64,000 nt of DNA from a virus, in IMG/VR virus record IMGVR_UViG_3300027833_000013, positions 105,460 to 169,459 of that record; one strand, written 5' to 3'. The notes below the pieces were generated by a model. That model saw only the letters and a list, made by a program, of their open reading frames with translations, ran no database searches and was not told the DNA's origin. Position 1 is the stretch's first letter, and every line of letters starts with the position of its first letter. Made by a program: the position numbers and the translations under genes. Shown in pieces: positions 11,046-61,745 of this stretch.

Positions 11046-11381
11046 ATGGACGAACGACTAGAAAAAGCATTAGCTGTTAGTAAAGCATTAGAAACACATC
11101 AAAATCAAAAAAATATTCTTCATAAGCAGTATAAAGATAATTTACTCTATTACTTTGATGGACATAAAGTTAGTGTAGACCTTTCTTTAATTAGTTACTG
11201 TACTAATAGAACAGGACCTGTAGTTATTATAGACGATAACAAGACTCCGACACTTATTGATAACGTTGAAGAATTTAATAAAAAAATAACAGCAATGTAC
11301 GACACTGCAACACGTAAATACCTTGTTGAATTTAAAAAGATTAAATCAAAAAGGTCAGTAGAGGAATTAATCGACCTATGA
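11046..11381 (+). CDS. Hypothetical protein
   Basis: 111-aa ORF with a strong RBS, overlapping the next gene (ATGA). Confidence 0.7.
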   Translation: MDERLEKALAVSKALETHQNQKNILHKQYKDNLLYYFDGHKVSVDLSLISYCTNRTGPVVIIDDNKTPTLIDNVEEFNKKITAMYDTATRKYLVEFKKIKSKRSVEELIDL

Positions 11382-12226
11382 CTCAAGGCGTATTGTTATT
11401 TGCATATAATTCTAAACATATGGATTATACAAAACAAGCTATATATTGTGCAAAACTTATCAAAGAATACCTTGGTAAGGAAGTTGCACTAGTAACTGAT
11501 AACGAAGAATATATTCAACGTCAATATCCGTTTTATACAAAGTATATAGATCATGTTATTACAACTGGTCATGAGGATAATGTACAAGAGCGTGTGTACA
11601 ATGACGGACTGTATCACAGTGATCGCCAACGTTGGTATAATACTAATAGAAGCTCATGTTTTGAATTGACTCCGTTTGACGAAACACTTGTAATAGATAC
11701 AGATGTTTTAATTTTTAATGACGAATTAAATAGATGCTTTGACTCGACAGAAGATTTTCTAATATCTAAAGATTATAACTTTGTTGATATGAAGCGCGAC
11801 TATTCAGAGTTTAATAAAGTGTCTGATACAACATGTGATATGTTTTGGGCAACTGCATTTTATTTTAAAAAAACTGCATTTACAAATGTATTTTTTGATC
11901 TTATCGAACACATTAAAGAAAATTGGCATTTCTATAGACTAGTATATGAAGTTGTAGAAGTTAAGTTTAGAAACGATTATGCATTTAGCATAGCAATACA
12001 TATGCTTCGAGGCATGAAAGACGCAACTTGGCCATCCCGTGTTCCTGCAAGCATTTGGATTACTGTAGATAAAGACATACTACATTCAATAAACGATACT
12101 AAATTAACCGTGTTATTACACAAAGAATACGACTATCAAGCAAGTGCAATTTGTGATGCTAATGTACACGTAATGAATAAGTTTTCATTAGAACGTTGCA
12201 TTGACAAGGTATTTGAAAATGAGTAA
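11378..12226 (+). CDS. GT-A fold glycosyltransferase-like protein (GT8/mannosyltransferase-like)
   Basis: GVLLFA start, VALVTD, TPFDETLVIDTD (DxD motif), RNDYAFSIA. Confidence 0.7.
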   Translation: MTQGVLLFAYNSKHMDYTKQAIYCAKLIKEYLGKEVALVTDNEEYIQRQYPFYTKYIDHVITTGHEDNVQERVYNDGLYHSDRQRWYNTNRSSCFELTPFDETLVIDTDVLIFNDELNRCFDSTEDFLISKDYNFVDMKRDYSEFNKVSDTTCDMFWATAFYFKKTAFTNVFFDLIEHIKENWHFYRLVYEVVEVKFRNDYAFSIAIHMLRGMKDATWPSRVPASIWITVDKDILHSINDTKLTVLLHKEYDYQASAICDANVHVMNKFSLERCIDKVFENE

Positions 12227-13058
12227 CGGTGTATGTTTACTAGCACAAAATAACGATACTACTGATTATATTAGACAAGCCTACGCACTTGCATTAAGCA
12301 TTATTGCAAAGTCTCCTAAACAAAAAGTAAGCCTTATTACTAATGACAGTGTGCGTGACAAATACAGAAAAGTATTTGATCAAATCATTCCTATTCCTTG
12401 GGACGATAGTGCAACTAAAAGTAACTGGAAAATTGAAAATAGATGGAAAGTTTATCATGCAACACCTTACAGAAATACTATAGTATTTGATGTTGACATG
12501 CTAGTATTAGAGGATTTAGACATATACTGGAATCAGTTACAAAAAAATAATGTTGATCACGATATACTTTTTACTACGCAAGTGGTCAATTATAGGAACG
12601 AGCCTGTAACAAGTAGGTATTATAGAAAAACATTTGATGCAAACAACTTGCCTAATTTATATTCAGGAATGTATTACTTTAAAAAAGCAGAAACTACAAA
12701 ACAATTTTTTGGCTTGCTAAAAACTGTTATGTGGAATTGGGGCGACTTTTACAAGATCAGTCTAAGTAAAATACCTCAAGAATGGTGTAGCTTTGATGTG
12801 TGTACTGCAATAACTGCAAAGTTATTAGATAGGACATACACTATCGGAGACAACAATAATATTCTTGAGTTTACCCATATGAAATCGAGATTACAGAATG
12901 TTGATATTGATGATAAATGGACTAAGTCTCTTTTTGTAGATTTTAATAAAGATCTTAATTTAATAGTTGGCGGAATTAAGCAGTCAGGAATATTTCATTA
13001 TGTTGAAGATGAATTCTTAACAGACGAAATAGTTAGTATACTAGAGGAAGCAATATGA
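12219..13058 (+). CDS. GT-A fold glycosyltransferase-like protein (paralogue of 11378)
   Basis: GVCLLA, VSLITND, FDQIIPI, TPYRNTIVFDVD (DxD), YSGMYYFKK; ATG 12219 preferred over TTG 12201. Confidence 0.7.
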   Translation: MSNGVCLLAQNNDTTDYIRQAYALALSIIAKSPKQKVSLITNDSVRDKYRKVFDQIIPIPWDDSATKSNWKIENRWKVYHATPYRNTIVFDVDMLVLEDLDIYWNQLQKNNVDHDILFTTQVVNYRNEPVTSRYYRKTFDANNLPNLYSGMYYFKKAETTKQFFGLLKTVMWNWGDFYKISLSKIPQEWCSFDVCTAITAKLLDRTYTIGDNNNILEFTHMKSRLQNVDIDDKWTKSLFVDFNKDLNLIVGGIKQSGIFHYVEDEFLTDEIVSILEEAI

Positions 13059-13681
13059 GTTACTATGCGTATTACAATGAAAAATGCGAAGTTACACAGA
13101 TATCTAATGAGCCAGATCTGTCTACGAACGACATGTATATTTTAATTGATGAAGAAATGTTTATTGCATTTGCTAATGAAAAAATTAATTATATCAATTA
13201 TAAAGTTATAAGCGGAAAGTTAACACTTAAAGCAGAAATTGAATTAGAAAAATATACTGACTCAAGAATCCCAATTGAACTTACTGATACATTAATAGAA
13301 AACTGCATGGTAGTAACACAAGATAAAAAAAATAAACATTGGTTTGCACAGTGTTATCTTAGTAGTGATGTTATAGAAAACTTTCTACTTATGCCAAAAG
13401 AACAAATTGAAAAAAAGATATTTACATTTTATGTAACAGCAAAAGACAACAGATTTATTTTACTTGATACAATAAAAATACCTGCAAAGTTTGTCCTCAC
13501 AAAGAATGAAGGATGGCACACTGAAGCAACTAGTGCAGATACTGGAGATGTGGTTGAAGTATTTACTGCACCGGCGTATACTATACCTAATATAGACAAA
13601 GAAATAGTAACTCAGGATGTTAGATTACTCGTCAGAAGAGACTTTTTAACCTATCATCATAAAGTAGGAGAACTTACATGA
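13055..13681 (+). CDS. Hypothetical protein
   Basis: 208-aa ORF translationally coupled on both sides. Confidence 0.65.
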   Translation: MSYYAYYNEKCEVTQISNEPDLSTNDMYILIDEEMFIAFANEKINYINYKVISGKLTLKAEIELEKYTDSRIPIELTDTLIENCMVVTQDKKNKHWFAQCYLSSDVIENFLLMPKEQIEKKIFTFYVTAKDNRFILLDTIKIPAKFVLTKNEGWHTEATSADTGDVVEVFTAPAYTIPNIDKEIVTQDVRLLVRRDFLTYHHKVGELT

Positions 13682-14598
13682 AAATTATAGATTATGATAT
13701 TATATACTTGTCATACGACGAGCCAAACGCAGAAAAAAACTATGCAGACCTATTAAGTAAAGTGCCTTGGGCAAAACGGGTGCATGGTGTAGAAGGCAGT
13801 GATGCCGCACACAAAGCATGTGCAAACCTAAGTGAAACAGATCGTTTTATTACAGTAGATGGCGACAACATTATTAATGCAGAGTTTTTAGGACAAGAAC
13901 TTGACTTTGATGATCATGCAGATTTAGAACACAGTGTAATTAGTTGGTGCGGCAGGAATATAATTAACGGATTAATGTACGGCAATGGTGGATTAAAATG
14001 TTGGCCAAAGCAGTATGTGTTAGATATGAAAACACATGAAAACGCAGAAGCAGACAACCCGCATGCACAAGTTGACTTTTGCTGGGATCTAAAATACATA
14101 CAGCAAAACAGTTGGTATAGCGATGTACATAATAATGAAACTGCACTACAAGCATGGAGGGCAGGGTTCCGTGAAGGTGTTAAGATGTCATTAGATCAAG
14201 GAGTGCGACCAACTAAAGAAGCTTTCTTACAAGGCCATTGGAAAAACTTACATAGGTTGTGGGTGTGGTTAATGGCAGGCGCTGATGTAGAAAATGGACT
14301 ATGGGCTATTTATGGTGCTCGAGAAGGATTATATATGACAATGTGTACAGATTGGGATTATGTACAAGTTAGGGATTTTGAATATTTAAACGAGTACTGG
14401 AATAAAACAGTTAGTGTATATATAAATGACGACAACTTGTTAGAATCAATTCAACGGTTAGGCAACAGTCTTATTGATGAATTAGAAATACCCATTGCTA
14501 AGAATCCTTTAGATGCACAACAAAGTAAGTTCTTTAAAGAAGTTTACCAGAATCCGAGTAGGAATGCACGACAACAGTTTGTGATTGATCCTGAATGA
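13678..14598 (+). CDS. GT-A-like (GT2-related) protein
   Basis: DIIYLSYDEP, RVHGVEG..AAH, FITVDGD (DxD), YGNGGLK, AWRAGFRE; paralogue of 20568. Confidence 0.55.
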   Translation: MKIIDYDIIYLSYDEPNAEKNYADLLSKVPWAKRVHGVEGSDAAHKACANLSETDRFITVDGDNIINAEFLGQELDFDDHADLEHSVISWCGRNIINGLMYGNGGLKCWPKQYVLDMKTHENAEADNPHAQVDFCWDLKYIQQNSWYSDVHNNETALQAWRAGFREGVKMSLDQGVRPTKEAFLQGHWKNLHRLWVWLMAGADVENGLWAIYGAREGLYMTMCTDWDYVQVRDFEYLNEYWNKTVSVYINDDNLLESIQRLGNSLIDELEIPIAKNPLDAQQSKFFKEVYQNPSRNARQQFVIDPE

Positions 14599-15965
14599 GT
14601 AACGAACAACGTATAGAAGAATTAAAACTAAAAAAAGATCTAATAAATTCTGTTAGTTGTAGTTTCTGTACGGCTAAGTGGTTACAAACAACCCTTATGT
14701 TACAAAATGGATATAACCATAGTTGCCATCACCCGGCACCGCATAAAATTCCATTAGAAGAAATAGAAGCAGATCCCGCAGCCTTGCACAATAGTAAGTT
14801 TAAAAAAGAACAACGTGCTATGATGTTAAAAGGTGACCGCCCTTCGGAATGTGATTACTGTTGGAAGATTGAAGATTTAGACAAAGATTATTTTTCAGAC
14901 AGACATTATAAAACAGCAGACAACTGGGCATGGGACAGATTTGAAGATATTGCTAAAAGCAATCCACAAGATAATGTATATCCTAGTTACTTAGAAGTTA
15001 GTTTTTCAAATGCTTGTAATTTTGCATGTGCTTACTGCTCGCCTGAAATTAGCAGTAAGTGGATGGAAGATATAAAACAAAACGGTGAGTATCCGGACGG
15101 TGCTCATAACTTAGATTATTTAAAGCAAGCTGGAAAATTTCCATATGCAAACAACGAAGACAATCCGTATGTAACAGCATTTTGGAAATGGTTTCCTGAT
15201 GCACTTCCGCATTTAAAAGTTCTACGTATTACAGGCGGCGAACCTACAATGAGTAAAGATACTTGGAAGTTATTAGATTACATAATTAATAATCCACAAC
15301 CTCAATTAGAAATTGCAGTTAATACAAATTTAAATGTTCCAGCAAAGCTAATAGATAAATTAATATACTATAGCGGCGAGCTTGAAGGTAAACTTAAAAA
15401 GTTTGACATATACACAAGTGCTGAAGCAGTTGGTGACCAAAATGATTATGTAAGAGATGGGATGAATTACAAAGTTTGGATGACTAATGTACATCGTATG
15501 TTGTATGAAACTAATAGTACTGTAGCAATAATGACAACTATTAATATTTTAAGTTTGCCTAGCTTTGCTAAATTTATACAAGACGTTATGGAACTTAGAA
15601 AAGATTACAATTTAAATTTTGAACACAATAGAATTCCGTTAAGCATTAACTATCTTAGATGGCCTTTGCATTTACAAACTATACTATTAGATAAAGAACA
15701 ACGTGTAAAGTACGCTAATGAAATTGAGAGTACATGCGAGTCTTGGCTCAAATATTACAGTAAAGAAAAATATGCTAGAATTTACTTAGAAGAATTTGAT
15801 CAAATAAAACGGTTGTGTAACTATCTTAGAAACACAGAACCAGCTATTCAGTATCGTGGTAACTTTTGCAGATATATACATGCATACGATAAGCGTCGAA
15901 ACAAAAACTTTAAAGATACTTTTCCAGAGTACTCAACATTATTAGAGGATTGGCATGCCAGCTAA
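14595..15965 (+). CDS. Radical SAM protein with N-terminal twitch/SPASM-like Fe-S domain (subfamily A)
   Basis: CNFACAYC motif and TGGEP; N-terminal FCTAKW...SCHHP...ECDYC. Confidence 0.9.
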   Translation: MSNEQRIEELKLKKDLINSVSCSFCTAKWLQTTLMLQNGYNHSCHHPAPHKIPLEEIEADPAALHNSKFKKEQRAMMLKGDRPSECDYCWKIEDLDKDYFSDRHYKTADNWAWDRFEDIAKSNPQDNVYPSYLEVSFSNACNFACAYCSPEISSKWMEDIKQNGEYPDGAHNLDYLKQAGKFPYANNEDNPYVTAFWKWFPDALPHLKVLRITGGEPTMSKDTWKLLDYIINNPQPQLEIAVNTNLNVPAKLIDKLIYYSGELEGKLKKFDIYTSAEAVGDQNDYVRDGMNYKVWMTNVHRMLYETNSTVAIMTTINILSLPSFAKFIQDVMELRKDYNLNFEHNRIPLSINYLRWPLHLQTILLDKEQRVKYANEIESTCESWLKYYSKEKYARIYLEEFDQIKRLCNYLRNTEPAIQYRGNFCRYIHAYDKRRNKNFKDTFPEYSTLLEDWHAS

Positions 15966-17400
15966 AGAAGATGAAACATTGCTACAGTACAGGCAACGTA
16001 TAATAGATCCAAAGAGTACTAGCTTCTGTGGTGCAAAATGGTTTAATGCAACTACTTGGTTAGGTAGTGGCACAACTGCTAGTTGTCACCACCCGCCGGC
16101 ACATCAGATTCCATTAGAAGAAGTAGAAGAAAACTACACAGCAATTCACAACACTAAACATAAGAAAGAGATGCGTAGGCAAATGCAAACGGGCGAACGC
16201 CCTGCAGAGTGCGAGTATTGTTGGAAAATGGAAGATATGAAAAAAGATGCAGTAAGTGATCGCACCTTTAAAACTATTATCTATACTGACGAAGAACTAC
16301 AGGCTGCATATGATGCAGACTGGAATGAAAACACAGGTCTTAAAACGTTTGAAATTGCGTTTGATAGAACTTGTAACTTAGCGTGTTCGTATTGCAATGC
16401 TAGTTTTAGTACTACATGGGCAAAAGATATTAATAAGAATGGTCCTTATGAAAACTTAGTCAGTGATGGCGCAGGTGCGTTTAAACACAATGGTGATTGG
16501 GCCGCTCCGTACGATAATGATGCAGACAATCCTTATATACAGGCATTTTGGAAATGGTGGGATAACGGCCTTGCAGATAGTTTAGATGAACTACGCATTA
16601 CAGGTGGCGAACCACTAATGAGCGGCAACACTTGGAAACTATTTGATTGGTATTCTAAACAGAAATCAGATATGCGATTTGCTATTAACTCGAACTTAAT
16701 TGCAAAAGAAAGCATTATTAATAAGTTGATTGAAAAAGCCCAAGGAATTAAAAAGTTCCACATTTATACTAGCTGTGAAGCAGTTGGTGAACAGGCTGAA
16801 TACATCCGGGACGGGTTAGTTTACGATCAATGGGTAAACAACGTAACACGTATTTTAGATGAAACTGACGTAGAGCTACATTGCATGATGACTATTAATA
16901 GTTTATGCTTGTTTAGTATTACAGAATTTCTTGATCAAATCTATACGCTAAAAGAACGTACAGGAACAAAAACGCCGACAGTAAGTTTAAACTTATTACG
17001 TTTTCCAAGTTTCCAAAGTCCTTTAGCATTGCCAGTACATCTTAAAGATTATTGCTACAATAAACTAAATGATTGGTATAACGTAAACAAGCACAAAGCG
17101 TTATGGCACGAGCATGAAAAAGCAAGCATCGAACGTTTAATAGATTATCTAGTTACTGTAGATGCTCCGCATAGACGCACGAGCAATCCTGTAACACTAT
17201 GGCGCGACTTTAAAACATTTTATCAGCAATATGATGTACGTAGAAATAAAAACATAAACGTGTTTCCAAAAATCCTAACAGATTGGATAGAAAGTATTCC
17301 TGATACAGATGCAAGTATTACAGAACTTGCAGAAAAAGAAGGATGGATATTAAATCCTGATAATAAGAATATTGCCAAAGGACTAGCAACATATGACTAA
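15955..17400 (+). CDS. Radical SAM protein with N-terminal twitch-like domain (subfamily A)
   Basis: CNLACSYC, TGGEP; FCGAKW...SCHHP...ECEYC; tandem paralogue of 14595. Confidence 0.9.
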   Translation: MPAKEDETLLQYRQRIIDPKSTSFCGAKWFNATTWLGSGTTASCHHPPAHQIPLEEVEENYTAIHNTKHKKEMRRQMQTGERPAECEYCWKMEDMKKDAVSDRTFKTIIYTDEELQAAYDADWNENTGLKTFEIAFDRTCNLACSYCNASFSTTWAKDINKNGPYENLVSDGAGAFKHNGDWAAPYDNDADNPYIQAFWKWWDNGLADSLDELRITGGEPLMSGNTWKLFDWYSKQKSDMRFAINSNLIAKESIINKLIEKAQGIKKFHIYTSCEAVGEQAEYIRDGLVYDQWVNNVTRILDETDVELHCMMTINSLCLFSITEFLDQIYTLKERTGTKTPTVSLNLLRFPSFQSPLALPVHLKDYCYNKLNDWYNVNKHKALWHEHEKASIERLIDYLVTVDAPHRRTSNPVTLWRDFKTFYQQYDVRRNKNINVFPKILTDWIESIPDTDASITELAEKEGWILNPDNKNIAKGLATYD

Positions 17401-18646
17401 AGATAATTTTTGTGTAGCACCGTGGATGCATTTACACGTTATTAACGATGGCCGGGCATTTCCTTGTTGTCAAACACCTTTAGAAGATAAACATGCATAT
17501 GGCAATGTAAGAGAAACTGCAATACATGATATCTTAAACAGTACTAAAGCTAAAGGCATGCGCAAAGATATGTTAACAGGTGTGCCATTACCTTCTAGTT
17601 GTGAGCGATGCACATCTAAAGAAAAGCACGGATTTGGTAGTATGCGCACTGGCATGAATCAAAAGTGGTTACCTCAAGTACAAGACGAAGTAGACGCAAC
17701 TCATGCAGACGGAACAATAGACAATCCTGTAATTAAAAATTGGGATTATAGATTTAGTAACTTTTGTAATCTTGCTTGTCCAACTTGCGGTCCATTGTTC
17801 AGTACACAATGGCATGCTGATTATAAAAAATTATTTCCTGACTATCCAATGACCGAAAAGGCACTAGTTGATCTAAAAGATGCAGATTTATTTTGGAGTG
17901 ATTTTTCAAAATATGCTAACCATGCAAAAGAAATTCATATTGCAGGCGGCGAACCATTTATGATGCCCGAAAATAATAAAGTGTTAACTGCATTAGAACA
18001 AGAAGAAAATTACGATATTGCAATACGATATAGTACAAACTGTACAGTATTAAAGCAAGGAAAAGAAAATATTCTAGACCGATTACAGAAGTTTAGTTAT
18101 ATACATCTTAGTTGTAGTATTGATGCCGCAGGCGATGCTTTCGAATACATTCGATATAAAGGTAAGTGGGACGTTGTTTTAAATAATTTAAAAGAAATTA
18201 GACAAAGTGGCCACAACTATTGGATTCATCCTACAGTAAGTATATTAAATATTTTTAGAATTACAGAGTTGCACGAAGAACTTTGGAACGCAGATATTAT
18301 ACCAGCAAAACGAGTACATTATAATGCCGACGGAACTGGTGCAGAATTTCACATAGAAAACTACTGGGTTGACAGGATGCACTTTAATCCATTATTTGTT
18401 CCTGAATATTATAGTATGACAATAATGCCAGCACACCTTAAAGAGCAGGCCGCCGATAAAATTACAACTTATGGCAAACGACTAGAGAAGGAACATAGTA
18501 TTCCGTTCCATGGCTGGCAAGCCTTAATTGATTTTATGTATCAGGCAGATGACAGTCATTTGTATGATGAATTTTTAAGTAAAACACACAATTTAGATAA
18601 ATTACGTGGCAATGATTTTTATAAAATTAACAAGGAATTTAAATAG
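17393..18646 (+). CDS. Radical SAM protein with N-terminal twitch domain (subfamily B)
   Basis: FCVAPW.H...PCC...SCERC, then CNLACPTC and AGGEP. Confidence 0.9.
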   Translation: MTKDNFCVAPWMHLHVINDGRAFPCCQTPLEDKHAYGNVRETAIHDILNSTKAKGMRKDMLTGVPLPSSCERCTSKEKHGFGSMRTGMNQKWLPQVQDEVDATHADGTIDNPVIKNWDYRFSNFCNLACPTCGPLFSTQWHADYKKLFPDYPMTEKALVDLKDADLFWSDFSKYANHAKEIHIAGGEPFMMPENNKVLTALEQEENYDIAIRYSTNCTVLKQGKENILDRLQKFSYIHLSCSIDAAGDAFEYIRYKGKWDVVLNNLKEIRQSGHNYWIHPTVSILNIFRITELHEELWNADIIPAKRVHYNADGTGAEFHIENYWVDRMHFNPLFVPEYYSMTIMPAHLKEQAADKITTYGKRLEKEHSIPFHGWQALIDFMYQADDSHLYDEFLSKTHNLDKLRGNDFYKINKEFK

Positions 18647-19647
18647 TGAGTAAAAAAAGTAAGCTAGAAAAGGTATCTCAATCGCAACTAGCAAAGACCA
18701 TAGTAACGAACAAGACAATACAGAAAGATAATTACGACAGTCCTGGTAGCGATTGGGATAATGTTTCCCACTTAGGGGTTGATCATCTAGATACATCAGC
18801 AGTTTCACCTTTTCGAGTTAAATCATTTGATGATCTTAGAAACTATGGCCCGTGGCAACCACTGCACCTATTAAGAAAACGTGCAGGCGAAACTCGTGAG
18901 AATGTATCATTCGATGTGCCCTGGGTACACGAAACTGAAATTCCATATCTTAAAGAACAGCCTTGGAAATATAGAATAAATGAATACGGATTTAGAGACG
19001 AATGGAAATTTAAAACTAAACGTGCAAACATAGGCTACTTTGGATGCAGTATGACATATGGTGAAGGCGTCGATACCCCAGATCTATGGAGTACTCATAT
19101 AACAAATGCGTATAAGTTAACAGGGTTAAACTTTGGTGTAGGCGGCGCCGGTCCTTTGCGTGTAGCAAGAACATTTGCCGCAGTACAGCAAACAATGAAA
19201 TTAAAGTATGCTATAATAATGCTACCACAAATCTCAAGAGTAGAACTATGGCAATACAACAATTATCAGCAACCAAAACAGCATCCTAGATTACATACTA
19301 TAAACTTAATTCCTAATTTTCCACCTAGTCCTACAGATTTTACGGGAGGAGATGACGTGTATAATGATTACTTTAAAGTTATGACAGATGAACAATCAAT
19401 TAGTCAGTGTGTACAAGCGTGTAATTGGATAACTCAAACAGCAAGAGCAAACAAGACTCGGGTACTATTCTGTTCTTGGGATCCGTTTAGTTTATGGGCT
19501 ATGCACAATGCAGGAGTTCCTAATTTGCATAATAAAATGTTTAAAAGGCTAGACTTAGGTAGAGATCAAATGCACCCGGGCCCGGAGTCTAATTTACAAT
19601 TTAGTAAAAGTATAAGAAGGTGGATAGATGCTAACCCTTGGCTTTAG
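18646..19647 (+). CDS. SGNH/GDSL-family hydrolase or acyltransferase
   Basis: YFGCSMTYGEG (block I), NFGVGGAG (block II), RDQMHPG (DxxH). Confidence 0.7.
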   Translation: MSKKSKLEKVSQSQLAKTIVTNKTIQKDNYDSPGSDWDNVSHLGVDHLDTSAVSPFRVKSFDDLRNYGPWQPLHLLRKRAGETRENVSFDVPWVHETEIPYLKEQPWKYRINEYGFRDEWKFKTKRANIGYFGCSMTYGEGVDTPDLWSTHITNAYKLTGLNFGVGGAGPLRVARTFAAVQQTMKLKYAIIMLPQISRVELWQYNNYQQPKQHPRLHTINLIPNFPPSPTDFTGGDDVYNDYFKVMTDEQSISQCVQACNWITQTARANKTRVLFCSWDPFSLWAMHNAGVPNLHNKMFKRLDLGRDQMHPGPESNLQFSKSIRRWIDANPWL

Positions 19648-29738: not shown

Positions 29739-29739
29739 T

Positions 29740-36739: not shown

Positions 36740-36740
36740 A

Positions 36741-37784: not shown

Positions 37785-37801
37785 ATAGAAGGTGCTATAA
37801 T
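37773..37801 (+). promoter_or_regulatory. Sigma70-type promoter (extended -10), probably leaderless
   Basis: TTGACT-17 nt-TATAAT with TG at -15/-14; ATG only 5 nt after the -10 box. Confidence 0.7.
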
Positions 37802-37806
37802 AAATT

Positions 37807-38922
37807 ATGAATGAAGATTTAAAATGGTCAAATTATGATTTTACTAAAATCCCTCTTAATGAGATTGTCTCTGTGGGGCAACGCACTCTGCTTTATCGCG
37901 ATCTATTTACTGTATCATGGCTCCTTGGAAGATTCTGTAACTACAAATGTTCCTACTGTTGGCCTTATGCAAGATCAGATCGTAAAGACCACAGACCTAC
38001 CGAGTTATGCTTGCGTACAGTGGATGAAATTAAACGTCAGGCCAGAGACAACGGCTTCAATTCTTTCCACTTCTCCTTGTCAGGAGGAGAGCCTACTTTC
38101 CATCCTGGATACTTGGATATATTAAAGCATCTTGCTGACGATGTTGATAACACTAATTATACTAGTGTGCATATGACAACAAACATGTCACGTAATATAA
38201 AGTGGCACGAGGAATATGTAGAAGCAGTTAAGCCGTTTCACCGTGCTAGTATAACTGCAAGTTTACACACAGAGCATGTAAACAGCATTGAGAAGATGCA
38301 AGACTTTGCAGATAAATTAATTTTCTGTCAAGAGCATGATGTACAGACTACTATTAATATGGTAATGGTACCAGACTGGTTTGAACGTGATTGGGAAAAT
38401 GCATTGTTCTTTCACGAGCAAGGCATAAACGTAACACTAAAGCCTCAAAGTGACCCTACAGCAAGCCGAGTAGTAGACGGGTATACAAAGGACAACTTAA
38501 AACGTTTGTACAACGGTATGCCGCAACGTGCGTATACAGAAACTATGCGTAAATGGGCAGGTCGTCCAAAGCCTACTTTTGAAATGCCTACAGATGTTGA
38601 AGGTAAAAACGATGCTAGTGTGCCTTGGCATATGCAAGTAGAGTTAAAAGATAAAGACGGTAAAAAGTACTACATGGACCAAGCAGAACGTTTTAATGCC
38701 TTTAATTTTAATAATTTCGAAGGATGGGCATGCAATGCCGGTTACAGCGGACTTATAATACGCGAGCCTGACGGTTCGGTAAAACGTAGTTATAGTTGCC
38801 ATGATGCGCCACTAGGCAACATCGAAACAGGGTTCGAACTGTTTAAGACACCTAAAACTTGTATCACTAAGAGTTGCGTAAGTTCGGCTGATTCAAAGAT
38901 ACCTAAACGTAAAATTTTGTAA
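37807..38922 (+). CDS. Radical SAM protein (subfamily D)
   Basis: SWLLGRFCNYKCSYC, SGGEPT, SLHTE, FEGWACNAG, CITKSC. Confidence 0.9.
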   Translation: MNEDLKWSNYDFTKIPLNEIVSVGQRTLLYRDLFTVSWLLGRFCNYKCSYCWPYARSDRKDHRPTELCLRTVDEIKRQARDNGFNSFHFSLSGGEPTFHPGYLDILKHLADDVDNTNYTSVHMTTNMSRNIKWHEEYVEAVKPFHRASITASLHTEHVNSIEKMQDFADKLIFCQEHDVQTTINMVMVPDWFERDWENALFFHEQGINVTLKPQSDPTASRVVDGYTKDNLKRLYNGMPQRAYTETMRKWAGRPKPTFEMPTDVEGKNDASVPWHMQVELKDKDGKKYYMDQAERFNAFNFNNFEGWACNAGYSGLIIREPDGSVKRSYSCHDAPLGNIETGFELFKTPKTCITKSCVSSADSKIPKRKIL

Positions 38923-39907
38923 TCATTATTTCTTCTGCTACGTGACATTGTTCTTGTAAGCAAGTTGTTGTAGTGTCCTTAAATAAAGGAATGTTGTCTA
39001 CAAAAATATTACCAATAGTTCCTTCATTACTGCATACACCGTGTTTCATCCTGCCGTCGGCTTCGATAAGTAATTTACGTTTTACAACCTCACACTGCCA
39101 TCCTTTAAACTTATTCATTCCGTTTGCAATAAACTGTGATATAGGCATCTTTTCAACACCGTGTTTAGTTTCTAGTAATACGTCAGGCAAATAATCTTGT
39201 GAATTATCTTCAAGTTGATTTAAATAAGAAAGTTCTTCTTTAGTAAAGTATCCATCATTGCCGATAGATTGCTTATACCCTTTTAAATACCTACTTGACT
39301 CATATGGTTGATTAAATGTTTTTGTTTCTTTATTGTATAAAGGAAATACCGGTAACTTTACAGTTGGGATATTGTGCTTTAATAACTCGTGTTCTAGTTG
39401 TTCTACTTTATGAAATAAGTTTTTTACAAGCATTGCTCTAATTTCAACATCGCCGCCTGCCGCTTTAATCATTACAGCAAGGTTTACAATAGTCTCTATA
39501 TCAGCAGACTCGGGATGAAAACTTATTTTCATTTCTAAATTTTTAAATGAGAATGTATCTCTACATTTTTCATACATCTTTATAGGCATGCTTCCGTTAG
39601 TAAACATCATAATATGAAAATTGTTATTAGACAGATATTTTAACCATTTATCAATATTAGGTATCAAGAATGGCTCACCTCCTGTAATAACAATCATTGT
39701 TTCTTTATCTAATGGAATTGCATTACGTAATTTTTTAGAAGCGTTAATTAATGCATCAATTGACGGAATTTTCTTCTTATTAATTGCTATATGATTGCTA
39801 GGACTACAATAGCTACAATCGTAATTACACATGTCAACAGGACGCCATTGTACCGTGTAATCAGTATTCCATTTTTCTAGATATAATTTAGAGAAGTTCA
39901 TACACAT
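38903..39907 (-). CDS. Radical SAM protein (subfamily D), inverted orientation
   Basis: WRPVDMCNYDCSYC, TGGEP, SFHPE, FKGWQC, CLQEQC. Confidence 0.9.
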   Translation of the reverse strand: MCMNFSKLYLEKWNTDYTVQWRPVDMCNYDCSYCSPSNHIAINKKKIPSIDALINASKKLRNAIPLDKETMIVITGGEPFLIPNIDKWLKYLSNNNFHIMMFTNGSMPIKMYEKCRDTFSFKNLEMKISFHPESADIETIVNLAVMIKAAGGDVEIRAMLVKNLFHKVEQLEHELLKHNIPTVKLPVFPLYNKETKTFNQPYESSRYLKGYKQSIGNDGYFTKEELSYLNQLEDNSQDYLPDVLLETKHGVEKMPISQFIANGMNKFKGWQCEVVKRKLLIEADGRMKHGVCSNEGTIGNIFVDNIPLFKDTTTTCLQEQCHVAEEIMITKFYV

Positions 39908-39956: not shown

Positions 39957-40580
39957 ATGCATAACTTATATTCTTCACTTACACAGTACGGTACTCAGAT
40001 AGCTCTTAGATCTAAAGAACAATTCCCTTCGGTGCAATATGTCAAATGGACTGAAGAAAATTTTAAATACGTAAAATATAATCCAAGAAATAGTTTTAAT
40101 AGATGGGGACTTAGTCTTACTAGCTACGATGGCGGCTTGTCGGGTATTCCAGATCTTGACAGTTTACATCAGTATAACCTAGAAAATAACACAACTATCG
40201 AAGAATCAGAGTTTAATATTCCAACCCCTGCGTACTTAGATAACTATCACATACAAGAATTTTTAAAGCCTTATAGCAAGTATATGTACAGAACGCATAT
40301 ACTTAAACTAGATCCAGGTGGATTCTTTCCACAACATAGAGATTTTAGAGGTAGCAATTTTAATAGTGTACGGCTTATATCTCCGCTAAAGAACCACTGT
40401 ACGTTTATTATGGATAACAAAGTGCTTAACTGGGAAAAAGGATGGCTATATTTTCTAGACACTGCAAAAGTACATTCACTATTTAACACGCAAACAAAGC
40501 CAAGTTATTGGTTAGTAGCTAATATAGATTTAAATGAGGAATCGTTTAATATTATAACAGATAATTTTGATAGAAGATAA
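39957..40580 (+). CDS. Asp/Asn beta-hydroxylase-like 2OG-Fe(II) oxygenase
   Basis: LKLDPGGFFPQHRD...FLDTAKVHSLFN; ATG 39957 preferred. Confidence 0.7.
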   Translation: MHNLYSSLTQYGTQIALRSKEQFPSVQYVKWTEENFKYVKYNPRNSFNRWGLSLTSYDGGLSGIPDLDSLHQYNLENNTTIEESEFNIPTPAYLDNYHIQEFLKPYSKYMYRTHILKLDPGGFFPQHRDFRGSNFNSVRLISPLKNHCTFIMDNKVLNWEKGWLYFLDTAKVHSLFNTQTKPSYWLVANIDLNEESFNIITDNFDRR

Positions 40581-41131
40581 TGAAAATAGAAGTAATAAAA
40601 GACAAACACCTTAGTATGCTCCAACAGTTTTGCAACCAATGTGCAGAATTGCAATATGAAAATAATAAATCTTTAACAGCTATGAAACTATTGTGGTGCA
40701 AAGATTGGGGTGAATATTTTTGTGCAATTAAAGATAACAAAATAATAGCAGTAGCAGGCTGTCACCCATTGCCAGAAGTAGGCCCTAAGGCCTGGCGTAT
40801 AATGTTTAGAGGATGCGAACTACCCCAAACTGATACATTTAAGGGACTAGGCAAAGGCGATTGGAATAGTATTACACAACGTGAAATGATTCCTAAGTTT
40901 ATCGAATGGTGCCCAAGTGACCAACTATACATTACTACTAACACATATCATGAACATTCAAATGGCAAAGCATCGCGCAATCATCGACTGATGGGGTTAC
41001 TTGCAAAGCAAAAAATACTTGACAAGCACAGTGAAATGATGTTATACTATACAGAACAGACTGTCTGGAAATTAAATATTCAAGAATATACTAGGCGTAG
41101 AAGTTTGTTGAAAGGAAACTATGTGGTTTAA
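40580..41131 (+). CDS. GNAT-like acyltransferase (tentative)
   Basis: YFCAIKDNKIIAVAG...WRIMFRG...LYITTN pattern resembles the GNAT fold. Confidence 0.4.
   Translation: MKIEVIKDKHLSMLQQFCNQCAELQYENNKSLTAMKLLWCKDWGEYFCAIKDNKIIAVAGCHPLPEVGPKAWRIMFRGCELPQTDTFKGLGKGDWNSITQREMIPKFIEWCPSDQLYITTNTYHEHSNGKASRNHRLMGLLAKQKILDKHSEMMLYYTEQTVWKLNIQEYTRRRSLLKGNYVV
41019..41048 (+). promoter_or_regulatory. Internal sigma70-type promoter
   Basis: TTGACA-18 nt-TATACT with an extended TG, inside the GNAT-like gene and upstream of ORF 41121. Confidence 0.5.
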
Positions 41132-41378
41132 TCTTAAACATTTACAAGAAGCAAAAACAAAAGCTGGCAAACCTAACGCAGGATACTGGTGGCACTTTAA
41201 ACTTGCTATAATGGAATTTTTCTTTCTATTATTTGTTTGTATTGGAAGCCTAATACATGCAATTTTTCCTTGGGTTCTTGATTTTAAATTATTAGAATGG
41301 CGAATTGCTAGGCTAAAACAACTTAAAAAGAAATTACCAGATGACCCACAACTAAAGAAGGTACACTTTGATGACTAA
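41121..41378 (+). CDS. Small membrane protein, DUF6356-like
   Basis: KHL...YWWHFKLA...LIHAIFPW pattern with a hydrophobic helix. Confidence 0.55.
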   Translation: MWFNLKHLQEAKTKAGKPNAGYWWHFKLAIMEFFFLLFVCIGSLIHAIFPWVLDFKLLEWRIARLKQLKKKLPDDPQLKKVHFDD

Positions 41379-42207
41379 TGTATTAGACTTAATAGCATAC
41401 AGAGATGGTGAATACAAACCATTGCGAGAAATTGGCCCTAGTATATTAGATTTTGGATTTATTCATTGTGATGCTACATATGATGTTATGCCTGTTTATA
41501 ACGGCAAAGCATTTTGTTATGATAGACATTCAACAAGATTTGAAAACAGTGCAAAACGTTATGGACTAGAGTTGCCAGATGTAGATAGATTATCCATTGT
41601 TAAAGAACTTAAAAAACTAAATGATGTTACAGACGCATTTGTTTGGTTTCTTGTATGGAGAGGCGCACCGCCAAGCGGCAATCCTAGAGATATAAAAAAC
41701 TGTCCAATACATTTTGCTATGTATATCAAGCCAAGTTATCCTATTGCAGATAATCCAATTGTAACTTTACATTTAGATACAAATACAAACAGAGTCAGCG
41801 ATGATTACTATGGACAAGAATATAAAAACATGGCTTGGCTTGACTTAACAATGAGCCAACGCAATAAACCAAAAGATGCAGACACAACTATTCTTGTAGA
41901 TGTAGACGGTAATGTTACCGAAGGACCTGGATTTAATGTTGGCATAGTATCTAACGGAGTTATATACACAGCAGATAAGAATGTTCTCAAAGGCATTACA
42001 ATGACAGTGGTAGAAGATATCGCAAGGGATAATGGCATCATGTTTTGTAGGTTACCAATTTCACAAGAACAGTTTAACAACGCAAACGAAGTGTTTATAA
42101 CTAGTTCGAGTGGTGGTGTAACAGCAACGCAAAAGTCTGGACCTGTTACTGAACTTCTTATTAACAGGTACAAAGACAAAATGGAAGAGTATGGAACCGT
42201 ATTATAA
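41368..42207 (+). CDS. PLP fold type IV aminotransferase, (R)-amine transaminase-like
   Basis: LDFGFIHCDATYDV, RH..RF..SA, YKNMAWLDL (Lys), EGPGFNV, LKGIT, EVFITSSSGG. Confidence 0.85.
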   Translation: MMTNVLDLIAYRDGEYKPLREIGPSILDFGFIHCDATYDVMPVYNGKAFCYDRHSTRFENSAKRYGLELPDVDRLSIVKELKKLNDVTDAFVWFLVWRGAPPSGNPRDIKNCPIHFAMYIKPSYPIADNPIVTLHLDTNTNRVSDDYYGQEYKNMAWLDLTMSQRNKPKDADTTILVDVDGNVTEGPGFNVGIVSNGVIYTADKNVLKGITMTVVEDIARDNGIMFCRLPISQEQFNNANEVFITSSSGGVTATQKSGPVTELLINRYKDKMEEYGTVL

Positions 42208-42691
42208 ACTTGTACCATACGCAATTAGTGATCAGACAAAGCAAGAGTTATTAGATATAGCTCTTGCTCCTGATACATTTGTGGATATAAGCTATAAAAT
42301 AAGTTTCTTTAAATTACCTAGTACACTACAAAGATTTAATACTACTGGATTAAATTGCGTATGTCAACTGCTACGTGTTTCTGAATCTGGTAGCACTATA
42401 CATAAAGATCGTAATAGGTACAACGAATACGATAATCAGTATATGCCTCGACATACTGTAATTAGTTTTGCATTAACTAACAATTGTGGAGAGACACATT
42501 TCTATGACGACAATAAGAACTTTGTAACCAGTATAGATTATGCAGGCCACGGCGCTATATTAAATACTGGAGAACATTACCATAACGTTCACTTTACAGA
42601 AGATAACAATACTAGAATAGTATTTCAATTATGTTTTGAAGAAAGATTTAGTGAAGTATGTAACTTATATAATAAAGGAATTGTAATATGA
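42191..42691 (+). CDS. 2OG-Fe(II) oxygenase-like protein
   Basis: IHKD...LNTGEHYHNV...RIVFQL. Confidence 0.55.
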   Translation: MEPYYKLVPYAISDQTKQELLDIALAPDTFVDISYKISFFKLPSTLQRFNTTGLNCVCQLLRVSESGSTIHKDRNRYNEYDNQYMPRHTVISFALTNNCGETHFYDDNKNFVTSIDYAGHGAILNTGEHYHNVHFTEDNNTRIVFQLCFEERFSEVCNLYNKGIVI

Positions 42692-44055
42692 AAAAGATTA
42701 TAATAGTCGGCGGTGGATCCGCCGCTTGGGCATCAGCATACCAAATTTTACGTAGCGAGTCGGTTGACGAAATACAAGTTATTCACAGTGGTACAGTTCC
42801 TATTATTGGAACAGGGGAAGGAGCAACTGGTTCTTTAGATGATATAATCCTTAAAGGAGACCATAAAGAGTTTTTAGAAAAAACTAACTCTACAGTTAAG
42901 CTAGGGATACTTTTTGAAAACTGGCAAGGCAACGGCACTAAGTTTAACAAATATGTAGATGCCTGGCATTATGATGCTATAAGAGGTGGCGCCGGAAAAG
43001 ACATAGACGTTATGTATAAAATACTTGACGAAGGCATAGACACCGACGATGTTAGTATTAATGCTTTTTTAATGAAGCATAAACTACAAGACTTTGAAGA
43101 AGTTAAACGACATACATTTCACTTTGATGGTAAGAATGTAGGACAATTTTTTAAAGATCGTTGTCTTGCTAGTAACAAAGTAACTAGTATAATAGATACC
43201 ATTACTGATATAGAAGTTAATAATGGAAAAGTGATTAGTTTACATGGTGAGAAAGATTCATATATAGCAGATTTTTATATTGACTCAACTGGATTTAGAA
43301 GATTATTTGCATCCTTTATTAAGCATGAATTTGAACCTTACGAAGAGTGGCTAGATATAAATGCCGCTGTTCCGTTTCTTCTTCCAGCAAAGAAGCAAGC
43401 ATATACAGTTTCAAGAGCAATGAAGAATGGTTGGATGTGGGAAGTTCCTAAAACAAATAACTTAGGTTCTGGCTATAACTACAGCACTAAGCATATCTCA
43501 TCAGATGAAGTAATTGCTGAAGCACAGGAATATCTTGGACACAATATTAAACCGATTAAAGTAGTTGAATACACTAGTGGGTGTTATAAAAAAACTGCTG
43601 GTCCTAATTATGCATTTATTGGACTAAGTGCAGGTTTTATAGAACCACTTGAAGCAACAGCATTACATTGTAGCATTTATAGTGCAGAAGAATTAATAAA
43701 ATACTTTAAAGGTGAAAAAACATTAGATCAATACAATGATTATGTATACGAAATGGTAACTGACTTTAGAGACTTCACAATATTGCATTACAGGATGGCA
43801 ACAAGAAATGATACAAAATTTTGGCAAGATCAAAAGAAGAAACCTATCCCAGAAAAGTTACAAGAGCAAATTAAACTATTTGAAAATGGAAGTTTAGAGT
43901 GTCTGTACAATACAACACACATATACTTTATGTTTCAAACATCAGTTGGATTCAATTTTATTAAAAAGCCAAAAGTATTTGACTATGATAAAACTATTGA
44001 AATACCAACATTAGATGCTATAAACAGAATTAAACAAAAACACAATGTGGAATAA
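42688..44055 (+). CDS. Flavin-dependent (tryptophan-halogenase family) halogenase
   Basis: IIIVGGGSA, IGTGEGAT, TVKLGILFENW (catalytic Lys), DSTGF, GWMWEVP, FIEPLEAT. Confidence 0.9.
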   Translation: MKKIIIVGGGSAAWASAYQILRSESVDEIQVIHSGTVPIIGTGEGATGSLDDIILKGDHKEFLEKTNSTVKLGILFENWQGNGTKFNKYVDAWHYDAIRGGAGKDIDVMYKILDEGIDTDDVSINAFLMKHKLQDFEEVKRHTFHFDGKNVGQFFKDRCLASNKVTSIIDTITDIEVNNGKVISLHGEKDSYIADFYIDSTGFRRLFASFIKHEFEPYEEWLDINAAVPFLLPAKKQAYTVSRAMKNGWMWEVPKTNNLGSGYNYSTKHISSDEVIAEAQEYLGHNIKPIKVVEYTSGCYKKTAGPNYAFIGLSAGFIEPLEATALHCSIYSAEELIKYFKGEKTLDQYNDYVYEMVTDFRDFTILHYRMATRNDTKFWQDQKKKPIPEKLQEQIKLFENGSLECLYNTTHIYFMFQTSVGFNFIKKPKVFDYDKTIEIPTLDAINRIKQKHNVE

Positions 44056-44060
44056 TCTGT

Positions 44061-45092
44061 ATGAAAATTAAACACAATATTAAATTAGATTTTAGTGATG
44101 TTCTTATTGAACCGAAAGCAAGCAGTGTTCCGCTTACACGTAAAAGTGTTGACATTGAAATAGATTGGTTAGGTACTACTGCAACTCCTGTAATAGTATC
44201 AAACATGCTTAGTACTGGTACTTACAAAATTGCAAATATGCTTACTCCGTTACGTGTCTTTACGTTCTTACATAAAGAATATACTGCTGAACAGCATATT
44301 ACAGAGTTAGAAAAAATGCAAGACAGAAAGTTCATTGCTATTACAAGTGGTGTACAAAGTTGGGATAAAGAAAAAACAATTGAAGTAGTTTCTAAATTTC
44401 CTGACATAGGAATAATTAATGTCGACATTGCAAATGTGTATGCTAATATAGACGGCATGATTAAAACTATTAAACTATACAGAGAAAAATTTCCACATAT
44501 AAAAATTAGTGCAGGCAATATAGCAACGGGTGAACCTATTAAAGTATTAGCCGATGCCGGCGCAAATTTTATTAAGGTAGGAGTAGGTAGTGGAGCCGCT
44601 TGTAGGACACGTTCAGAAGTTGGCACTGGCATACCTCAACTAAGTGCTATTATGGATTGCTATGAAGAAGCTGTTAAATATAGCGTCGAAATTATTTCAG
44701 ACGGAGGATGTGTTACTGCCGGAGATGTTTGCAAAGCAATTGGCGCCGGAGCCAAAATGGTAATGGTAGCTGGCATGGTATCTAAGTCAGAAGAGTGTGA
44801 TAATATTGTAGAAATAGATGGTAAAAAATATGTAAACTTTTATGGGTTAGGCAGTACAACTATGTATAACCGAACAAAACCAACAGAACAAGAGTATAGA
44901 CCTAACGAAGGCAGAGACTTGCTAATACCGTGTAAAGGGTCTATTACAAGCGTTATACAGCAGATACAAGGCGGTTTACGTAGTGTATGCACTTATGTAG
45001 GTGCAGAACATATAGATCAATTACACAAACGTACAGTGTTTGTACGTGTAAATAATCAAATAAACAATAGTTTAGCAAGATATGAACAATGA
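44061..45092 (+). CDS. guaC: GMP reductase (IMPDH/GMPR family)
   Basis: LDFSDVL, AGNIAT, KVGVGSGAACRTR (catalytic Cys), PQLSA, SDGG, YRPNEG, GGLRSVCTYVGA; no CBS insert. Confidence 0.8.
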   Translation: MKIKHNIKLDFSDVLIEPKASSVPLTRKSVDIEIDWLGTTATPVIVSNMLSTGTYKIANMLTPLRVFTFLHKEYTAEQHITELEKMQDRKFIAITSGVQSWDKEKTIEVVSKFPDIGIINVDIANVYANIDGMIKTIKLYREKFPHIKISAGNIATGEPIKVLADAGANFIKVGVGSGAACRTRSEVGTGIPQLSAIMDCYEEAVKYSVEIISDGGCVTAGDVCKAIGAGAKMVMVAGMVSKSEECDNIVEIDGKKYVNFYGLGSTTMYNRTKPTEQEYRPNEGRDLLIPCKGSITSVIQQIQGGLRSVCTYVGAEHIDQLHKRTVFVRVNNQINNSLARYEQ

Positions 45093-45787
45093 TAGATTAT
45101 GCACATATACTTAAAAATGGTGTTGAAATAAGTAGTAGTGGTACTACAGGACCTGCTAAAACAGTCTTTAGAACGCCCGATAACTTACAGGCATGTAATG
45201 ATGTTGCTATTGATGCACAACAGCTTACACGAAGCTCTAAGGTGCTTACAGTAACACGTATGACCCACGCAGGCGGCTTATTGACTCAAACATTACCTGC
45301 ACATAGTATTGGCGCAGAATATAAAATACAACAATTTAATGTATATACTTTCTTAAAAGACTTTAAAGACTATACACATACATTCTTGGCACCTGCGCAA
45401 ATGATGGCGTTAATGCATACAAAAGGATTTAAAGATTGTGATCTTACTGGTAAGCGTATACTAGGCGGAAGCGATCCTGTTAGTTGGGAAATGATAGAAG
45501 CTTTTGTAAGTAAAGGGGCTATTATACAACCTAATTGGGGAATGAGCGAAATAGGACCAATTACTATTAATATAGAATTTGATAGTATGGATAAAGTACA
45601 GTATGTTAAACAACGATCACCAGATGATTATACTATTATGGGAGATACCTATTATTGCGATTGGAAAATAGTAAAGCAAGAACTTTACGTTAAAGGACCA
45701 ACTAGTATATATGATGAATGGTTTGCTACAGGCGACAATGTAGCATTAGACATGGGTAGAAGGATGTATTATATTGGCCGTAAATAG
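45089..45787 (+). CDS. Minimal ANL-family adenylating enzyme (AMP-binding core only)
   Basis: SSSGTTGPAK (A3), WGMSE (A5), ELYVKGP (A6), WFATGD (A7), IGR (A8), then stop. Confidence 0.75.
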   Translation: MIDYAHILKNGVEISSSGTTGPAKTVFRTPDNLQACNDVAIDAQQLTRSSKVLTVTRMTHAGGLLTQTLPAHSIGAEYKIQQFNVYTFLKDFKDYTHTFLAPAQMMALMHTKGFKDCDLTGKRILGGSDPVSWEMIEAFVSKGAIIQPNWGMSEIGPITINIEFDSMDKVQYVKQRSPDDYTIMGDTYYCDWKIVKQELYVKGPTSIYDEWFATGDNVALDMGRRMYYIGRK

Positions 45788-46310
45788 AATTGTAGCATTT
45801 GGTTGTTCTAATACTGTTGGCGAAGCATGTAGCACTAATTGGCCAAAAGAATTAGGACTATTATTAGACTGTGAAGTTGTAAATTGTGCTGAAATAGGAT
45901 GCAGTGGACGTTATATTATACACGCAATGCGACATTTTAAATTTGAAAAAGATGATGTTTGTATTGTAGCATGGCCTGAAATAACTCGATATTGTTGGTT
46001 AAAAGGCGAAAATAACTTTAAACATATCGGAGTATGGAAAGATTCTGATAGTACATTATATAAAAAGTATTTTTCAGATTATCATGCTGAACAAGATTTT
46101 TACTTGTACGAAGATTATGCTAGGTTATATGCAAAACAAAATAATATTACCTATTTAGATTATTTAAGTTGTTATACCTTTGTAAATACTAAAAAGCATA
46201 AAATGGAATTACATGACTATGGAACAGATGATAAACATCCGGGTAAACTTAGTCATATAATTTTTGCACAACAAATTAGAAAGGATATAAAAGATGGAGC
46301 CGTATTTTAA
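45774..46310 (+). CDS. SGNH-family protein
   Basis: AFGCSNTVG, NCAEIGCS, VAWP, DDKHPG. Confidence 0.7.
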   Translation: MAVNRIVAFGCSNTVGEACSTNWPKELGLLLDCEVVNCAEIGCSGRYIIHAMRHFKFEKDDVCIVAWPEITRYCWLKGENNFKHIGVWKDSDSTLYKKYFSDYHAEQDFYLYEDYARLYAKQNNITYLDYLSCYTFVNTKKHKMELHDYGTDDKHPGKLSHIIFAQQIRKDIKDGAVF

Positions 46311-46878
46311 GTATGTAGAAGGTATAAATTTTACACCTGAAACACGTAAAAAACTTGCAGATAATATTTTATCTAATGCTGAAGATTATATCAGAAGTGC
46401 TAATTATAGACATAATAAGTACGGAAAATATGATTGGAATTGGTTCTGTCCACGTAACTTAATTCCTACAAAACTTATGGACGAAGTTGGTAAACGTTTT
46501 AATATACCAGTTTCATATGAAATACTAGGACAAACACCTTATACAGATGGTAAGATACATACTGATCGAAAAGTAGAAGGACTTCCGCCTAGAGTTACAC
46601 TAATAAACTTTCCAATATATCCGTTTGATATGAGCGTATATGGACCAACTAATTTCTTTAAATTAATTGAAGGAAGTTACTCAGACTATGACAATGCTAT
46701 ATTTGAATTACAGTGTAGTGTTGATTACAGTCATAATCTTCCTGTAATTTTTAATCTACAAGAATATCACAATGCAGTAAACGATACAGATGATTACAGA
46801 TTTAATTGTCAGTTTACAACTGACCTAGAAGGTCCTGAGATATTTGAACTTTATAATTCTGGTAAGTTGTTTACTTAG
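46294..46878 (+). CDS. 2OG-Fe(II) oxygenase-like protein
   Basis: IHTD...LINFP...FNLQEYHNA...RFNCQ. Confidence 0.55.
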   Translation: MEPYFKYVEGINFTPETRKKLADNILSNAEDYIRSANYRHNKYGKYDWNWFCPRNLIPTKLMDEVGKRFNIPVSYEILGQTPYTDGKIHTDRKVEGLPPRVTLINFPIYPFDMSVYGPTNFFKLIEGSYSDYDNAIFELQCSVDYSHNLPVIFNLQEYHNAVNDTDDYRFNCQFTTDLEGPEIFELYNSGKLFT

Positions 46879-61739: not shown

Positions 61740-61745
61740 AGTATT

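Follow-up and report, generated by a model that had tools for sequence, protein, structure and literature searches.

What does a marine giant phage do with some 36 kb of mostly enzyme-coding DNA placed between its tail-fibre genes? We examined one such island (positions 11046-46878) in the final 64 kb of the IMG/VR record IMGVR_UViG_3300027833_000013. (We call this 64-kb stretch the window; positions refer to it unless stated otherwise, and genes are named by their first position.) The record is a linear contig of 169 kb that is only ~47% complete by estimate, and therefore derives from a jumbo phage. Proteins identical to those of the record are present in public metagenome assemblies, and close relatives are found in marine metatranscriptome runs. 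The original prediction, made from the letters of the window, was that a cluster with 12 radical S-adenosylmethionine (rSAM) enzymes builds heavily tailored groups and transfers them, most plausibly, to the Ser/Thr-rich fibres of the virion. We found that the tailoring island is real, under selection, linked to fibre genes and hypervariable, and that sugar-type chemistry fits it best. From its gene content, two glycosyltransferase (GT) folds, selection, synteny, promoter motifs and gene linkage, all of which we show here, we propose a system that builds and tailors glycans; it would consist of a fixed backbone plus cassettes that can be exchanged, and its product would most likely sit on a phage protein. 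We hold this proposal tentatively, at a little under an even chance.

Is the island a single unit? It had been described as about 42 mostly overlapping, co-oriented genes. We count 43 open reading frames (ORFs), and 36 of the 42 junctions overlap or abut; 42 of the ORFs are on the plus strand, but one rSAM gene (38903-39907) is on the minus strand. The placement between tail-fibre genes was borne out: upstream, genes 4713 and 8585 match PHROG tail-fibre families, and the right border is a convergent fibre-like gene on the minus strand (46875-48479) with an Mtd_N domain and the motif TAAATA upstream. Beyond it lie non-structural genes.

Relatives, which we collected by pattern scans of IMG/VR (143 for gene 13678 and at least 591 for the rSAM gene 37807), show which parts of the island are fixed. 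Wherever a contig reaches far enough, the order of fibre-like genes, 11046, 11378, 12219, 13055 and 13678 is kept. In three long relatives the complete order is preserved through 14595, 20568, 21235, 23041, 24875 and 37807; the islands of two of these are ~49 and 56 kb long, and the same convergent fibre gene marks their end. Between these backbone genes, the cassettes differ even where the flanking genes are 97-99% identical (relative L007). Much of the variable cassette at 27632-37784 recurs as a block in two relatives (L098 and L104), and the halogenase, GMP reductase-like and aminotransferase genes are rare among 80 relatives. Because these three are rare passengers, we reject the idea of one pathway of all 43 genes. 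Nor is the island unique to this genome, as its backbone recurs in many aquatic jumbo phages. The island is hypervariable and fibre-linked in related jumbo phages, around an ordered backbone. Every island gene with a comparator has a ratio of nonsynonymous to synonymous substitution rates (dN/dS) of 0.02-0.25 (six genes had none), and the island is under purifying selection.

Among cultured phages, only Ralstonia phage RsoM2USA (344 kb) matches 11378. It has the first eight backbone genes only (genes 354-347), beside genes for tail-tube and sheath-like proteins. Just upstream of this minimal island, between the sheath-like and tube-like genes, is gene 358 (L087:15858-16835), which by its N-terminal motif is NDP-sugar epimerase-like and has TAAATA upstream. 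Published proteomics of RsoM2USA covered 10 bands, and glycans were outside its scope.

What would the backbone act on? It begins with a small virus-specific protein (11046-11381), for which a feature score of 0.89 gives DUF4376, a fibre-chaperone-like family, as a tentative lead; 0 of 24 members match the Pfam model PF14301. Next come two overlapping genes, 11378-12226 and 12219-13058 (together 11378-13058). The structure model of 11378 (predicted local distance difference test score 92.5) has a GT-A fold of the GT8/GT24 type. Its best match is UGGT (Z = 15.6; root-mean-square deviation 3.6 over 227 residues), followed by glycogenin (15.3), LgtC (14.9), the Skp1 galactosyltransferase (14.6), GlyE (14.0) and the capsid GT of PBCV-1 (12.0). 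Profile comparison identifies 12219 as a paralogue of 11378, and both aspartates of the family's DxD motif (D107 and D109) are invariant. The fast-evolving protein 13055 (13055-13681) matched only unnamed viral clusters in an atlas search, all under 0.9.

A second pair consists of 13678 (13678-14598) and its paralogue 20568. The structure model of 20568 is also a GT-A fold (Z = 11.6 to B4GALNT1 and 10.6 to IspD), and Pfam scores the pair as GT2 at E = 0.037. Profile comparison gave no sequence link between this GT2-like pair and the GT8-fold pair. Of the four GT-A-like proteins that were predicted, then, 11378 and 20568 have the expected fold and each has a paralogue, although 20568 is not resolved from nucleotidyltransferases. 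In the segment 20512-22200, a sigma70-like site is followed by 20568 and by the putative methyltransferase 21235, whose label comes from a motif alone and was not confirmed by profile comparison. At the N-terminus of 21235 (21235-21600) is a short helical repeat, of which relatives have anywhere from no copy to several. The backbone proteins other than the rSAM enzymes belong to no recognised family in PHROGs or Pfam, and hidden Markov model (HMM) searches of the PDB with profiles of 11378, 20568, 21235 and 10093 returned nothing useful.

The case for a protein acceptor rests most firmly, though without amounting to proof, on the linkage of the GT8-fold pair to gene 10093 (10093-10989, plus strand), which lies just upstream of the island as first delimited. 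10093 encodes a putative structural protein with 26% Ser+Thr (the genome median is 13%); it matched no PHROG or Pfam family and no PDB entry. In 72 of 74 loci, the gene right next to the 11046 homologue belongs to the 10093 family, and 61 of 62 distinct loci have a gene of this family at most four ORFs upstream of the GT8-fold pair. Where a locus has GT2-like genes only, the family is missing in 50 of 51 cases, many of these loci being short. In RsoM2USA, gp355 is a 10093 homologue (E = 2.5e-34), despite the tail-tube and sheath surroundings. Because this Ser/Thr-rich gene so consistently precedes the GT8-fold pair, it is our lead candidate for the acceptor.

When is the island likely to be transcribed? 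A conserved sigma70-type promoter (TTGACA-N17-TATACT, 10993-11021, plus strand) is found 25 bases upstream of 11046. Sigma70-type sites of at least 10/12 precede the 11046 homologues in 42 of 46 distinct sequences, as compared to 6% of shuffles; TAAATA, which we take to be a late promoter by analogy with T4, precedes only 3 of 46. Sigma70-type sites also precede 39 of 58 homologues of 37807 and, as a partial pattern, 11 of 28 homologues of 20568. TAAATA is instead upstream of the structural genes 4091 (15/15), 8585 (38/38), 46875 (8/8) and 10093 (22/45), and the strongest gene-preceding sigma70-type sites of the contig mostly head non-structural genes, including an ADP-heptose operon. Given a sigma70-type promoter at the head of the island and TAAATA at the structural genes, the island appears to be a transcription unit of its own, probably an earlier one, and we rejected the idea of a late operon. 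Early-type timing suits enzymes that are made before their substrate. At the backbone rSAM gene 37807 (promoter and gene, 37773-38922), the -10 box ends just 5-6 bases ahead of the start codon (37773-37807), and the ADP-heptose operon is spaced alike, which suggests that the mRNA of 37807 is leaderless. In four marine metatranscriptome runs, which belong to three studies, there are contigs that match parts of island genes, for the most part with 90-99% identity. This is a hint of expression only, as the contigs are those of relatives and DNA carry-over is possible.

A conserved sigma70-type promoter would fit a host-directed role equally well. The island might remodel the host surface early in infection, altering lipopolysaccharide, capsule, or pilin/flagellin glycans against other phages or grazers by way of host carriers and transporters, as already proposed for the host-recognition cluster (HRC) of pelagimyophages (PMC7029224) and for GT clusters of cyanophages (PMC7824862). 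We consider this unlikely. No membrane transferase or flippase was recognised in the island, the near-invariant link between the GT8-fold pair and the 10093 family would be left unexplained, and the RsoM2USA unit is preceded by TAAATA and not by a sigma70 consensus, which leans towards a virion-timed role in that phage.

The host-directed reading also draws on bacterial orthologues of the core. We scanned GTDB genomes with a profile of the GT2-like pair; many of the top matches were phage contigs in bins of metagenome-assembled genomes and were excluded from host assignment. Contigs of Bdellovibrionota carry orthologues of 13678, 23041, 24875 and 37807 (38-66% identity) along with 20568 or 21235, and these core loci have no GT8-fold pair. 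One copy of the core is on a 494-kb contig among ordinary genes; another is in a locus with membrane proteins, where its neighbours include four GT2 genes, one QueC-like gene and additional rSAM genes. Because the orthologues occur together on these contigs, we conclude that the enzymes move together between phages and bacteria, in glycan-related surroundings. In trees of the GT2-like pair and of rSAM 37807, both GT paralogues are found in phages and in Bdellovibrionota, and the trees give no direction of transfer. Furthermore, a 140-kb contig from a Bdellovibrionales genome bin (JABGUH010000022.1; L179/L253) has the whole head unit, including a 10093-like gene, plus rSAM genes, adjoining pheST, rimM, trmD and rplS. 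This could be the capture of a phage unit by a predatory bacterium, or else a misassembly.

All 12 proteins with a CxxxCxxC motif match PF04055 (10 of them above the cut-off), and there is no further match in the 169-kb contig. With intact motifs and with extra cysteines of the auxiliary-cluster type (N-terminal in 5 and C-terminal in 7), the twelve predicted rSAM enzymes are well founded. They are not exceptional, however: four long relatives have 17-20 rSAM matches each, so this number is ordinary for the clade. Five of the enzymes pass the cut-off of 170 for NF033640 (N_Twi_rSAM) with 302-422 bits, and their N-terminal twitch cysteines precede the CxxxCxxC motif. These are encoded at 14595-18646 (14595, which is in the backbone, and the variable genes 15955 and 17393) and at 24875-27648 (24875, in the backbone, and 26287). 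For the other seven, with C-terminal cysteine sets, no curated family fits in HMM comparison. Sequence search gave no relative of the NF033640 enzymes with a solved structure, and literature searches found no reaction assigned to the family. Twitch rSAM enzymes such as BtrN, NeoN and HygY are known for oxidation, epimerisation and dehydration-type reactions.

Another possibility is radical editing of peptides or of the fibre proteins themselves (cross-links as in ribosomally synthesised peptides with post-translational modifications (RiPPs), or epimerisation), with glycosylation being secondary. SPASM/twitch enzymes are often peptide-directed (PMC8326336), and the segment 22187-24857, which encodes the backbone rSAM 23041-24120, a QueC-like PP-loop protein and an SGNH-like protein, starts with a 78-aa ORF (22187) that is conserved in some islands and could be a substrate. 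But this ORF is missing from most islands, every RiPP-maturase model scored far under its cut-off against the island's rSAM enzymes, and the PqqD/RRE domain had no match in the five records searched, while a positive control matched in 4 genomes, although a divergent RRE may have escaped this search. We therefore think it very unlikely that peptide editing is the main activity.

What do the cassettes add? Cassette 27632-37784 encodes four rSAM enzymes, an SGNH-like protein, two methyltransferases, a fold-I-like pyridoxal phosphate (PLP) protein, a 2-oxoglutarate (2OG)-like protein, two nitroreductase-like proteins and two QueC-like proteins. The variable tail (39957-46878) encodes three 2OG/AspH-like proteins, a GNAT-like protein, a DUF6356-like protein of 85 aa, a class IV aminotransferase, a flavin halogenase, a GMP reductase-like protein, a truncated ANL enzyme and an SGNH-like protein. 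A smaller variable segment (18646-20575) encodes another SGNH-like protein and a 315-aa protein without assignment. The labels given in the original prediction fared unevenly. The halogenase (42688), in which the flavin, Lys and WxWxxP motifs are intact, matches the viral enzyme VirX1 (PDB 6QGM) at E = 5.7e-39, and the aminotransferase, the GMP reductase-like protein, the ANL enzyme (although truncated) and the Asp/Asn hydroxylase 39957 are also well supported by HMMs. Of the four 2OG-Fe(II)-like proteins, 42191 and 46294 are linked to 39957 by profile, but 31277 is assigned by a motif only. One nitroreductase matches at the cut-off and the other falls just below it; the second PLP protein, 29740, has a weak match (E = 0.002), as does the GNAT-like protein 40580 (E = 0.02). 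Methyltransferases 29205 and 30663 are under the Pfam cut-off, and with 21235 all three proteins of this label have weaker support. The four SGNH-like proteins form a single family by profile, but their match to DUF6473 is weak, and all three QueC-like proteins are present, but 36212 is short and degenerate. The genes for the GNAT-like protein (40580-41131) and the truncated ANL enzyme (45089-45787), which are separate here, are adjacent in relatives L128, L132, L162 and L164, which suggests that they form an acyl-activation and transfer pair.

Halogenase, ANL, GNAT-like, aminotransferase and nitroreductase-like genes, together with the desaturase, TauD and B12-dependent rSAM genes of related islands, could equip the island or its cassettes to make a free glycosylated, acylated or halogenated metabolite, and a similar proposal is in print for cyanophage clusters (PMC7824862). 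In Photorhabdus spp. (L199-L201, L225), a GT resembling 20568 is found near further GTs, an rSAM gene and ABC-exporter-like genes in a locus of low GC content, which is also in keeping with a small molecule. Nevertheless, a free metabolite seems distinctly unlikely: no scaffold synthase or exporter was recognised in the island, the scaffold-like enzymes are the rare passengers, and the position behind the fibre genes is fixed. Individual cassettes may still serve different ends.

The same mix of GT, rSAM, PLP, flavin and GNAT enzymes could instead decorate the bases of the phage DNA. Such enzymes are combined in thymidine hypermodification (PMC8989533), the promoter is of the early type, and there are QueC-like genes in the island and a QueE gene in the window (56117-57013). 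However, the island is among structural and not replication genes, and its QueC-like genes, besides being variable, have counterparts in the bacterial glycan locus. Thymidine hypermodification requires a 5-hydroxymethyldeoxyuridine kinase and an amino acid:DNA transferase, neither of which was found here, in a search without a positive control; TET/JBP proteins and the amino acid:DNA transferase were found in 0 of 5 records, which are incomplete, again without a matching control. The window also has a separate candidate for DNA modification at 56-64 kb. There (56117-63833, minus strand), a QueE-like rSAM gene, a TGT-like ORF (by motif only, with no HMM match) and GT-like, PRTase-like and HIT-like genes form a candidate 7-deazaguanine DNA modification locus that is cut by the contig end. 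Hypermodification of DNA by the island is thus highly improbable.

We return to the proposal of a glycan-building system. The island probably makes a sugar-containing conjugate in the cytoplasm, and the target may well be a virion or fibre-associated protein, although we would not quite bet on it. The glycan reading is supported by cassettes that recur in related islands (NDP-sugar epimerase, UDP-glucose dehydrogenase, B12-dependent rSAM, desaturase, TauD and sulfotransferase-like genes), the first two of which point to sugar chemistry, and by the bacterial core among GT2 genes. A cytoplasmic location is suggested by the fact that just one island protein, of 85 aa, has a strong hydrophobic stretch and that no flippase is annotated among the 43 proteins. 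In the scheme we envisage, host sigma70 polymerase would transcribe the island before the TAAATA-led structural genes. The head unit (11046, the GT8-fold pair and 13055) would then put a first sugar on Ser/Thr of the 10093-family protein, and perhaps of other fibres; here the fold is seen in the model and the activity is conjectured from it. Next, 13678 and 20568, the putative methyltransferase and rSAM enzymes 14595, 23041, 24875 and 37807 would produce or attach an unusual sugar by a radical route, for instance oxidation, epimerisation or dehydration. Finally, each lineage would gain its own surface chemotype for host binding or shielding from the methyl, acyl, amide, amino, hydroxyl or halogen groups that its variable cassettes attach. 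In its most ambitious form, a widespread clade of jumbo phages would have its own protein O-glycosylation, which primes a Ser/Thr-rich virion protein that an array of twitch rSAM enzymes elaborates, while Bdellovibrionota use the same core on their own surface glycans; taken as a whole, this is doubtful.

Several points weigh against a virion target. None of the reactions is more than inferred, and the same applies to the donor sugars, acceptor, timing and biological role. In Bdellovibrionota, which lack the phage structural genes, the shared core is maintained with neither 10093 nor the GT8-fold pair, and the island's promoter is not the motif of the fibre genes. Because the top fold matches of 11378 score alike and one of them is a lipooligosaccharide enzyme, the modelled fold does not name the acceptor, and that of 20568 does not by itself separate it from nucleotidyltransferases. 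10093, a presumed structural protein, could be a partner and not a substrate, and Ser/Thr richness is common among fibre proteins. Also, no gene for nucleotide-sugar synthesis was recognised within the island. The predicted targeting of Ser/Thr-rich fibres has therefore gained a tightly linked candidate, without these objections being removed.

The same record may encode a second glyco system outside the window. An operon at L169:784-5693 (plus strand) has HldE-, HldD- and GmhB-like genes for ADP-heptose and a perfect sigma70 promoter, and at L169:14552-18235 (minus strand), GT9-like, SGNH-like and carbamoyltransferase genes lie among Cys-rich fibre-like genes.

How does the island compare with known systems? 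Our literature searches found no description of this backbone, in agreement with the original statement that no characterised pathway is like it; yet fibre-linked islands with GT and rSAM genes have been described bioinformatically (PMC7029224, PMC7824862). The closest is HRC of pelagimyophages and cyanomyophages (PMC7029224). It, too, is large and hypervariable, follows baseplate and fibre genes within the structural region of a large myovirus, and combines GTs with rSAM cassettes that were acquired bit by bit. In contrast to HRC, the island belongs to an RsoM2USA-like jumbo clade and has an ordered backbone, 12-20 rSAM enzymes, sigma70-type promoters of its own and a core shared with Bdellovibrionota; HRC lies between VrlC and the neck gene gp14, whereas the island ends at the Mtd_N fibre gene. 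Jumbo cyanophages are described as having GT and secondary-metabolite-like clusters (PMC7824862), and for moraphages four core GTs are reported (PMC12619734). In Megavirinae, virus-encoded, clade-specific clusters of 6-33 genes glycosylate the virion fibrils, and the glycans have been shown chemically (PMC10117803); the PBCV-1 capsid GT shares the fold of 11378. Those are eukaryotic viruses with nucleotide-sugar pathways and GTs, and no rSAM arrays are described for them. Mycobacteriophage GTs are also reported to decorate virion proteins (Freeman et al. 2023, according to PMC12619734), but in that account the GTs are few, the targets are the capsid and tail tube, and rSAM tailoring is not reported. 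Finally, VirX1 has a homologue in 42688, but as an accessory gene that is rare among related islands.

Fibre-linked GT islands have long been seen in aquatic phages without a known product. The minimal core in the cultured phage RsoM2USA (genes 355-347), together with a named candidate acceptor, makes the choice between a virion and a host-surface target directly testable. The island family also offers a wealth of strongly selected radical SAM enzymes that have yet to be studied. If the O-glycosylation reading is true, these phages would have a radical-based, combinatorial chemistry of the virion coat that has no characterised precedent. The shared core links phages to predatory bacteria, two groups that must both recognise the surfaces of their prey.

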